In this document: piece after piece, positions 13,101-16,100 of the stretch
Layout: each line of letters opens with the position of its first letter
How positions within the stretch are numbered: the first letter of the stretch is position 1
NCBI RefSeq assembly: GCF_003991155.1
Contig: NZ_CP031293.1
DNA: 64,000 nucleotides
Reading direction: 5' to 3' (one strand)
DNA from: Escherichia coli
GTDB lineage: Bacteria; Pseudomonadota; Gammaproteobacteria; Enterobacterales; Enterobacteriaceae
Program-made: the position numbers

Positions 13101-16100
13101 ATTCCTGCGCCTCGGTCGTGAAGGCTATACCAAAGTACAGAACGCTTCCTACCAGGTTGCTGCTTATCTGGCGGATGAAATCGCCAAACTGGGGCCGTAT
13201 GAGTTCATCTGTACCGGTCGCCCGGACGAAGGCATCCCGGCGGTTTGCTTCAAACTGAAAGATGGTGAAGACCCGGGATACACCCTCTACGACCTCTCTG
13301 AACGTCTGCGCCTGCGCGGCTGGCAGGTTCCGGCCTTCACTCTCGGCGGTGAAGCCACTGACATCGTGGTGATGCGCATTATGTGTCGTCGCGGCTTCGA
13401 AATGGACTTTGCTGAACTGTTGCTGGAAGACTACAAAGCCTCCCTGAAATATCTCAGCGACCACCCGAAACTGCAGGGTATTGCCCAGCAGAACAGCTTT
13501 AAACATACCTGATAACATAACGTTGTAAAAACCGAATGCCCAACCTTTAAAAAACAGCTGGGCATTCGGTTGCTTATTAATCGCAATAATATATTGGCTG
13601 TCTATTCATCGTGTTGATAAGATATATGTTATATGAATGTTTATTAAATGTAGCGATTATATTTAATGTAACGAAAAGGGATTATTTGCTTACTATTAAT
13701 TTCCCTGCGTTCTTAAACACGTTTTTGTATTATAAATCCAGTCATCCTGCCCGTAGAACATCACACATTATCATCCTGTTCTCCCGCTTCGTTTAAATTT
13801 ATTTATCAATCAATTTGACTTAAGAGGGCGGCGTGCTACATTAATAAACAGTAATATGTTTATGTAATATTAAGTCAACTATGCAACCACTACATGGTAA
13901 TTGTCTAATTGCGTACGCAAGACATAAATATATTCTCACCATGGTTAATGGTGAATATCGCTATTTTAATGGCGGTGATCTGGGTGATGCTGCCAACTTA
14001 CTGATTTAGTGTATGATGGTGTTTTTGAGGTGCTCCAGTGGCTTCTGTTTCTATCAGCTGTCCCTCCTGTTCAGCTACTGACGGAGTGGTGCGTAACGGC
14101 AAAAGCACCGCCGGACATCAGCGCTATCTCTGCTCTCATTGCCGTAAAACATGGCAACTGCAGTTCACTTACACCGCTTCTCAACCCGGTACGCACCAGA
14201 AAATCATTGATATGGCCATGAATGGCGTTGGATGCCGGGCAACCGCCCGCATTATGGGCGTTGGCCTCAACACGATTTTCCGCCATTTAAAAAACTCAGG
14301 CCGCAGTCGGTAACCTCGCGCATACAGCCGGGCAGTGACGTCATCGTCTGCGCGGAAATGGACGAACAGTGGGGATACGTCGGGGCTAAATCGCGCCAGC
14401 GCTGGCTGTTTTACGCGTATGACAGGCTCCGGAAGACGGTTGTTGCGCACGTATTCGGTGAACGCACTATGGCGACGCTGGGGCGTCTTATGAGCCTGCT
14501 GTCACCCTTTGACGTGGTGATATGGATGACGGATGGCTGGCCGCTGTATGAATCCCGCCTGAAGGGAAAGCTGCACGTAATCAGCAAGCGATATACGCAG
14601 CGAATTGAGCGGCATAACCTGAATCTGAGGCAGCACCTGGCACGGCTGGGACGGAAGTCGCTGTCGTTTTCAAAATCGGTGGAGCTGCATGACAAAGTCA
14701 TCGGGCATTATCTGAACATAAAACACTATCAATAAGTTGGAGTCATTACCGTGATCTGGTTTTTGCGGATGCAAGCCAAATTCAAGTGGATAAGTGTGTT
14801 GAGAATTTCGTATTAGTTTCAAGAGACACGCTTTCATTATTTCTCCCGATGCTCAAGGAGGAGGCATTAAAACTTCATGCACATAAAAAAGCTCCTTCAT
14901 TACTCGTTCATCACTGTATCAGAGATATTCCTGTTTTTCAGGAAGTTGCGCAACTGTCGCAGAATAAGAATCTTCGCTATGCAGAAATGCTACGTAAAAG
15001 GGCATTAATCTTTGCGTTGTTATCTGTTTTTCTTGAGGATACGCAGTTTATACCGTTACTTCTGAACGTGTTGCAACCGAATATGCGAACACGAGTTTGT
15101 ACGGTCATCAATAATAATATCGCCCATGAGTGGACATTAGCCCGAATCGCTAGCGAATTGTTGATGAGTCCAAGCCTGTTAAAGAAAAAATTGCGCGAAG
15201 AAGGTACGTCATATTCACAGTTGCTTACTGAGTGTAGGATGCAGCGTGCTTTACAACTTATTGTTATATATGGGGTTTCAATTAAGCGAGTTGCAGTATC
15301 CTGTGGATATCACAGCGTGTCGTATTTCATTTACGTTTTTCGAAATTATTATGGGATGACGCCCACAGAGTATCAGGAGCGATCGGCGCAGGAATTACCG
15401 AACTGTGGCCCGGCGGCAAGTATAGCTGCGCAAGGGAATTTTTACGGCACTGACCGTTCTGCGGAAGGAATAAGATTATAGAGTTTTACTCAGACATAAA
15501 AAAAACCCGGCATAGGGGACCGGGAAGAGGATAGTCTGCCGTCTCCAGACTAATAAACCGTTATAACACTCCCTGTTGGCACGGGAAACTTTGTGCTCTC
15601 AGTAAGTTAAATATAACTTTTACTGGAAATAAGATCAGCCATTTTTTTATAAACATAAGCTATACGCTGTGCGAAAATATATTCGTGTTGCATTTACTTA
15701 TTGTCAATTAACTGTTATGCAAAACTACTTTGTGGATAAATTTTGGTCCTACCAAATCTGGCAGTTTTTGCGCTAAGAAACAGTCTGGCATCATTTCATT
15801 AGTATACTGAAATTGAAATAATCGCAGTAATGAAATATAAGGGATAGTCATGACTCATGTCTGCTCGGTGATCCTCGTTCGTCGTTCATTCGATATTTAT
15901 CATGAACAGCAAAAAATATCGTTGCATAACGAGAGTATCCTGCTGCTGGATAAAAATTTGGCAGACGATTTTGCGTTTTGTTCACCGGATACACGACGAC
16001 TGGATATCGATGAGCTGACAGTTTGCCATTACTTACAAAATATTCGTCAGATACCACGCAATTTAGGGTTACATAGCAAAGACCGTCTGTTAATTAACCA

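Follow-up and report, generated by a model that had tools for sequence, protein, structure and literature searches.

IS1 is classically polar, as in its gal and lac insertions, with Rho-dependent termination occurring in the poorly translated insB part of the element, and the IS1 promoter is repressed by InsA. The closest described counterparts of the allele reported here are gadX::IS5 and other gadX loss-of-function alleles of Escherichia coli K-12 evolved in benzoate, where gadX was likewise inactivated by an insertion sequence while the other parts of the acid fitness island were kept. Published gadX mutants, including gadX::IS5, produced significantly less GABA at pH 2, and a gadX mutant lost part, not all, of the acid resistance enhanced by sRNAs. 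GadE was still activated upon deletion of GadX or GadW, and GadX and GadW were interchangeable at some promoters.

In the window, which is the whole stretch of E. coli DNA analysed here (64 kb), gadX was found to be split after codon 34 by a complete IS1 inserted in the same orientation as the gene (Table 1). This is an ordinary insertion-sequence knock-out of gadX. It is highly probable that IS1 transposed to codon 34/35 in an ancestor belonging to ST457 (phylogroup F-like), that the insertion was inherited clonally, and that the gadX of its carriers is null or strongly reduced in function.

Table 1 Features of the interrupted gadX locus and its neighbours, in window coordinates.
Feature	Position	Strand	Evidence
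gadA, glutamate decarboxylase, intact, directly upstream of gadX	12112..13512	+	ORF; annotated intact in 2016C-3878
gadX promoter-like site, TTGACT-16-TACATT with TG extension	13815..13842	+	consensus match only; promoter scan
gadX 5' fragment, codons 1-34	13881..13982	+	ORF, K-12 alignment; PGAP pseudogene
ORF open from the gadX start: 34 GadX and 8 IS1 codons, then TAG (42 aa)	13881..14009	+	ORF scan
gadX left target copy GTGATCTG	13975..13982	.	sequence inspection, alignment to 1517k
IS1 element, 768 bp	13983..14750	+	inverted repeats, PGAP
IRL of IS1	13983..14005	+	exact repeat match
Promoter-like site at IS1 left end	13990..14017		promoter scan
insA, 91 aa, GTG start	14038..14313	+	ORF scan
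InsAB' transposase coding region, two joined frames	14038..14735	+	PGAP CDS 6358..7055 of L001, not marked pseudo
A6C programmed -1 frameshift motif AAAAAAC	14289..14295	+	motif search; PGAP 'programmed frameshift'
IRR of IS1	14728..14750	-	exact repeat match
gadX right target copy GTGATCTG	14751..14758	.	sequence inspection, alignment to 1517k
gadX 3' fragment, codons 35-274 and stop; AraC-type DNA-binding domain at about residues 151-242	14759..15481	+	HTH_18, 3mkl, PGAP pseudogene
Longest canonical-start ORF of the 3' fragment (GTG, 231 aa), hypothetical GadX without residues 1-43	14786..15481	+	ORF scan
GadY sRNA, intact, antisense to the gadX 3' UTR	15493..15606	-	RF00122, 150 bits; K-12 identity
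gadW, intact, downstream partner of gadX	15850..16578	+	ORF, PGAP
mdtF	16941..20054	-	

The left and right inverted repeats of the element, GGTGATGCTGCCAACTTACTGAT and GGTAATGACTCCAACTTATTGAT, respectively, matched the IS1 ends exactly and were the only two end matches in the 64-kb window, where none was expected from 100 shuffles. The insA frame was followed by an overlapping insB frame that stayed open to 14735, and the slippery motif of the A6C type was found within TTAAAAAACTC at 14287. With a length of about 768 bp, imperfect terminal inverted repeats of about 23 bp, insA and insB' joined at A6C, and a short target duplication, the element has the features of the IS1 family. In a genome identical to the window over the 2-kb gadX::IS1 segment, PGAP annotated the equivalent of 14038..14735 as an intact IS1B-family transposase with a programmed frameshift. 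No disabling mutation was seen, and this copy looks active as far as its sequence can tell. All coordinates given in the original prediction for a complete 768-bp element with intact repeats, insA, insB, and A6C site were confirmed.

The target sequence GTGATCTG was present on both sides of IS1, and as a single copy at the corresponding place in strain 1517k. The duplication was 8 bp long; a 9-bp duplication is excluded, because the right copy of GTGATCTG is preceded by the terminal C of IS1. The true transposition event that had been proposed from this duplication was fully borne out. IS1 transposed into gadX at codon 34/35, and a staggered cut followed by repair would have doubled 8 bp of the target.

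When IS1 and one copy of the repeat were removed, the two gadX pieces (13881..13982 and 14759..15481) joined in frame into 825 nt with 274 codons. The rebuilt gene aligned without gaps to gadX of K-12 MG1655 (b3516), with 774 of the 825 nt (93.8%) and 256 of the 274 aa identical, which agrees with the predicted split after codon 34 and the resumption of the frame at 14759. Across the site, K-12 gadX reads GGTGACCTGGTT, while the window reads GGTGATCTG, IS1, and GTGATCTGGTT. The rebuilt GadX contained an AraC-type double helix-turn-helix (Pfam HTH_18, 6.5e-18, residues 164-242; two HTH_AraC matches) and matched the solved DNA-binding domain of GadX (PDB 3mkl, E 1.9e-67). Its position in the order gadA, gadX (with gadY antisense), gadW, and mdtF, its gapless identity to K-12, and its C-terminal double helix-turn-helix identify the locus as the gadX orthologue. 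The frame from the start codon ended at 14009 after 42 codons, instead of running through the full 274 residues, and RefSeq PGAP flagged both pieces as pseudogenes, the 3' piece with the remark 'missing N-terminus'. The locus is a gadX pseudogene and not a functional member of the family.

Fifteen complete E. coli genomes contained the uninterrupted empty site, which covers gadX and 200 bp of flank on each side (1,225 bp), with 100% identity, and the same query matched strain IAI39 at 99.8% identity. One of the 15 was the published ST457 strain 1517k, whose gadX is annotated as intact with 825 nt. When the window was aligned to 1517k, the single-copy target bases aligned to both sides of IS1. 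The alignment contained 107 differences, of which 96 were clustered at 35-40 kb of the window and five represented alignment overlap at the IS1 boundary, leaving about six real differences outside the recombination-like block at 35-40 kb. Because gadX is intact in this nearly identical background, the insertion is a recent, derived event. The bases of the element were absent from gadX of K-12 as well as from gadX of the same lineage, which removes the possibility, raised with the original prediction, that a contiguous reference gene also carries them.

Among 5,426 complete genomes of E. coli, 33 contained the exact 2-kb segment with gadX::IS1 at 99.9-100% identity, and a 25-kb query downstream of IS1 reached at least 99.99% identity in the same 33 genomes only. 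The next-best genomes over the 25 kb, 1517k included, had 99.6% identity, and all of them had an intact gadX. Strain 2016C-3878 differed from the window by two bases in 64 kb. The carriers came from humans, cattle, chickens, pigs, sheep, dogs, a cat, a mink, wastewater, and surface water in several countries. Sequence types of carriers were taken from papers, which cover three of the 33 genomes as ST457: MRY15-117 and MRY15-131, both from cattle in Japan, and CREC-544, from a patient in Korea. Judged by these identities, the insertion marks a recent and widely spread clone, which is a sublineage of E. coli ST457. A further carrier, LWY24, was published as ST93, which conflicts with its sequence identity to ST457 genomes. 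The clade is too young for decay of the gadX 3' fragment to show.

The rest of the acid fitness island was preserved. The genes gadA, gadW, mdtEF, gadE, hdeD, hdeAB, yhiD, dctR, and slp were annotated as intact, and gadX was the only annotated pseudogene within the 64 kb (coordinates of the 2016C-3878 locus plus 7680 give window coordinates). The GadY sRNA scored 150 bits over positions 1-114 of the Rfam model RF00122, against a gathering score of 45, and can thus be assigned to this family; it was identical to K-12 gadY (b4452) at 106 of 106 positions and had a terminator-like hairpin at 15524..15506. GadY had been said to overlap the 3' end of gadX. It does overlap the 3' UTR of gadX on the opposite strand, but not the coding sequence, since it begins 11 nt past the gadX stop codon.

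The arrangement of the fragments points to loss of GadX. Translation from the gadX start would give a 42-aa stub that ends at the TAG at 14007..14009 inside IS1. The sequence for the remainder of the N-terminal domain and for the entire DNA-binding domain has been moved 776 bp downstream, to a place with neither a predicted promoter nor a good start codon. Transcription starting at the gadX promoter or coming in from gadA would need to traverse IS1. Since IS1 is polar, probably little transcription reaches the 3' fragment of gadX, and the co-transcript of gadX and gadW is probably reduced. GadY is intact, and gadW would retain a promoter of its own; the gadY and gadW promoters are reportedly divergent.

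Because GadE, GadW, and GadA are intact, as are the other members of the island, the acid-resistance defect is expected to be partial rather than total. The expected phenotype, by analogy with published gadX mutants, is a partial and condition-dependent weakening of glutamate-dependent acid resistance. Induction of gadA/gadBC would be weaker and less GABA would be made under GadX-dependent conditions, and expression of mdtEF might also be lower. The suggestion of a possible change in glutamate-dependent acid resistance due to this allele is therefore reasonable, given that published gadX mutants were less acid resistant under some conditions and made less GABA.

IS1 insertions in and near gadX were also found outside the clone. 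A same-orientation IS1 within the 2-kb gadX query was present in 60 genomes in total, of which 33 represent the one clone and 27 are further genomes. Nine of the other insertions were mapped, and each proved to be an independent event flanked by a duplication of 8 or 9 bp. Seven of the mapped sites were inside gadX (nt 24, 59, 87, 124, 454, 494, and 662) and two flanked it, at 123 nt before the start codon and 236 nt past the stop. Among the ten distinct insertions in the gadX area, the duplication was 8 bp in the window allele and in one other (L003), and 9 bp in the remaining eight. Five of the eight intragenic sites, counting the window allele, fell in the first 125 nt of gadX, which have a G+C content of 38%.

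As a control, the same IS1 was placed in three other loci as synthetic queries, and genomes with a same-orientation IS1 within ~1.5 kb were counted; such a count sees one orientation and tallies genomes, not events. One genome was counted for mdtF (53% GC), nine for hdeD-gadE (37.5% GC), and 27 for the treF neighbourhood (55% GC), compared to 60 for gadX (41% GC in the coding sequence), or 27 when the clone was left out. The listed treF matches spanned 400 to 1,250 bp more than the query and still had treF named, so that IS1 probably lies beside treF and not in it. With 27 non-clonal genomes at gadX and 27 at treF, we dropped the idea that gadX is a special hot spot for IS1. The recurrent disruption of gadX is real, and the control counts do not demonstrate an unusual hot spot or selection.

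Several other explanations of the locus were weighed against clonal inheritance of a gadX knock-out. Copies of insertion sequences commonly cause mis-joins in short-read assemblies, and IS1 could in principle have been placed in gadX by an assembly or scaffolding error. The same junction, including its perfect duplication of 8 bp, recurred in 33 complete genomes that were assembled independently, by different laboratories and in different years, and a mis-join would not produce a target duplication. The junction is therefore real, and the chance of an artefact, which the original prediction had named as the finding that would overturn it, is negligible. It is very unlikely as well that the carriers make a working or interfering truncated GadX, starting at GTG 14786 (without residues 1-43) or at ATG 14849 (without residues 1-64). 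Such a protein could possibly arise by read-through from gadX or from an IS1 promoter, and it could activate weakly or poison complexes of the GadW/GadX type. The predicted 231-codon ORF from GTG 14786 is indeed present and open, the two-helix-turn-helix DNA-binding domain is complete and is unchanged in most of the 33 carriers, and the frame is open from 14693. Read-through is conceivable with IS1 and gadX co-oriented, and there are related cases in which PGAP calls a product: in FDAARGOS_1297 a 254-aa gadX product from Met21 downstream of a 5' IS1 insertion, and in DFK.1 a full-length gadX product that starts at a TTG within the end of IS1. In the window, unlike in DFK.1, the corresponding TTG (14737) is out of frame, and between 14693 and GTG 14786 the open frame has no canonical start. 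At the right junction of IS1, the promoter scan found no promoter-like site and reading by eye gave poor -10 candidates only, and no Shine-Dalgarno-like sequence precedes GTG 14786 or ATG 14849. The native gadX start likewise has no obvious Shine-Dalgarno sequence, so this last point is weak evidence against translation. A protein short of at least its first 43 residues would have an incomplete N-terminal domain and would likely misfold, IS1 is polar, and PGAP treats the 3' fragment as a pseudogene. Thus the ORF part of the predicted N-terminally truncated GadX driven from IS1 stood, and its expression is a possibility that the junction, the start region, and the 43 missing residues do not favour. 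Nothing positive speaks for an active truncated GadX starting at GTG 14786, which is no more than a possibility.

Loss of gadX, as the preferred reading of the locus, could also have been selected and not just tolerated, if a lower cost of the Gad regulon or rewired targets (mdtEF) aided the ST457 sublineage. The insertion is retained throughout the sublineage, in all 33 genomes and across several countries and hosts, and at least seven other independent IS1 insertions occurred inside gadX in other lineages. In published studies, loss of gadX function recurs in laboratory evolution, and deletion of gadX is favoured in an mgrB-deficient background. However, hitch-hiking would be just as likely to fix the insertion in a young clone, and the counts at the control loci speak against an unusual enrichment at gadX. 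We consider selection for the knock-out unlikely. The broader view that gadX::IS1 is adaptive, helped the sublineage to spread across hosts and continents, and represents one case of recurrent natural selection against gadX is more doubtful still.

The junction of gadX codon 34 with IS1, together with the GTGATCTG duplication, is an exact marker of one sublineage within the multidrug-resistant ST457 clone, which can be used by PCR or in silico and tells the carriers apart from other ST457 strains such as 1517k. The carriers represent a natural gadX mutant circulating in humans, livestock, pets, and wastewater, which suggests that transmission does not require full-length GadX, consistent with the published redundancy of GadX and GadW. 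In gene-presence screens, gadX is often listed as a regulator of efflux or resistance, and presence calls can mask a broken gene. We found no publication that ties ST457 to a gadX insertion or describes the allele; of two papers with both terms, one uses them in unrelated contexts. The observation of a clade marker may thus be unpublished, and it is a small epidemiological point with no new kind of biology. The allele is already present in 33 RefSeq genomes, where it is flagged as a pseudogene, and IS1, gadX, GadY, and inactivation by insertion sequences are all textbook matters. The allele leaves the understanding of acid resistance and of IS1 unchanged.

Compared to known systems, the element is a typical member of the IS1 family (PGAP class 'IS1-like element IS1B'). 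It shares with the family the length of 768 bp, 23-bp inverted repeats starting with GGT, a -1 frameshift at AAAAAAC that joins insA to insB', and a short stretch of duplicated target. Here 8 bp were duplicated, while 9 bp is commoner for IS1, and otherwise the element has nothing unusual. The gene lies at the same site as K-12 gadX, between gadA and gadW and with GadY antisense to its 3' UTR, and has the same 274 codons when rebuilt. It differs from K-12 gadX in being split by IS1 after codon 34 and in 18 amino acids, and it is a phylogroup-F-type allele (99.8% identical to IAI39), unlike that of K-12. The other natural IS1 insertions in the gadX area involve the same element in the same orientation, but at different sites and in other lineages, as independent events, and none of those examined matches the spread of the window allele over 33 genomes. 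While gadX::IS5 is a product of laboratory evolution under one defined selection and involves IS5 with a 4-bp duplication, the window allele is a natural IS1 insertion that is fixed in a widespread clone.

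The divergence between the window and 1517k, an ST457 strain with an uninterrupted gadX, was highly uneven. When the window was aligned to this strain, 96 of the 107 differences fell in a single 5-kb stretch carrying ars genes, while the remaining ~44 kb had only ~6 differing sites. The pattern resembles a tract of recombination by which two ST457 sublineages differ, that of the window and that of 1517k.

The gadX region of strain LWY24 (NZ_CP054556.1) was compared with window positions 13681..39758. Its gadX::IS1 junction was identical to that of the window, and it showed 100% identity to ST457 genomes across 25 kb. 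However, LWY24 was published as ST93. A labelling error may have occurred, whether in the typing as published or in the genome as deposited.

Window features besides the gadX::IS1 junction.
Feature	Window position	Strand	Content
Difference-rich stretch (5 kb)	35000..40000		ars genes, permease, ArsR-like regulator, hypothetical gene
chu haem-uptake cluster	about 24760..34220		chuS, chuA, chuT, chuW/hutW, hutX, chuY, chuU and an ATP-binding-protein gene
43-codon ORF within gadX, out of frame	14877..15008	+	

The chu cluster was located between dctR and yhiD, within the acid fitness island. The short ORF within gadX was preceded, ~12 nt upstream, by a strong Shine-Dalgarno-like sequence (AAGGAGGAGG), and is probably a chance ORF.

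Separate IS1 insertions were found elsewhere in the acid-resistance region of other E. coli genomes. In EC09 (locus L004, NZ_CM169492.1), IS1 occupied L004 2762..3529, 236 nt past the gadX stop codon and between gadY and gadW, where it disrupted neither coding gene and presumably lies within the gadY-gadW divergent promoter region. Nine complete genomes had a same-orientation IS1 within or adjoining the hdeD-gadE region (equivalent to window 21900..23132), including O157 strain 180-PT54 and O104:H4 strain 2009EL-2071. In some of these nine, a gene annotated as 'LuxR family transcriptional regulator' adjoined gadE.

Two further genomes carried IS1 within gadX itself. In FDAARGOS_1297 (locus L002, NZ_CP070148.1), an IS1A at L002 1761..2528 interrupted gadX at nt 59 with a 9-bp duplication, and 3' of it the RefSeq annotation pipeline PGAP called a normal 254-aa GadX from Met21 (L002 2539..3303) without a pseudogene flag. 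In DFK.1 (locus L009, NZ_CP104848.1), IS1 at L009 1725..2492 was inserted at gadX nt 24. Despite this insertion, PGAP annotated a full-length 825-nt gadX (L009 2479..3303) starting at a TTG within the right end of IS1, so that the IS1 terminus provides an in-frame start codon and takes the place of residues 2–5.
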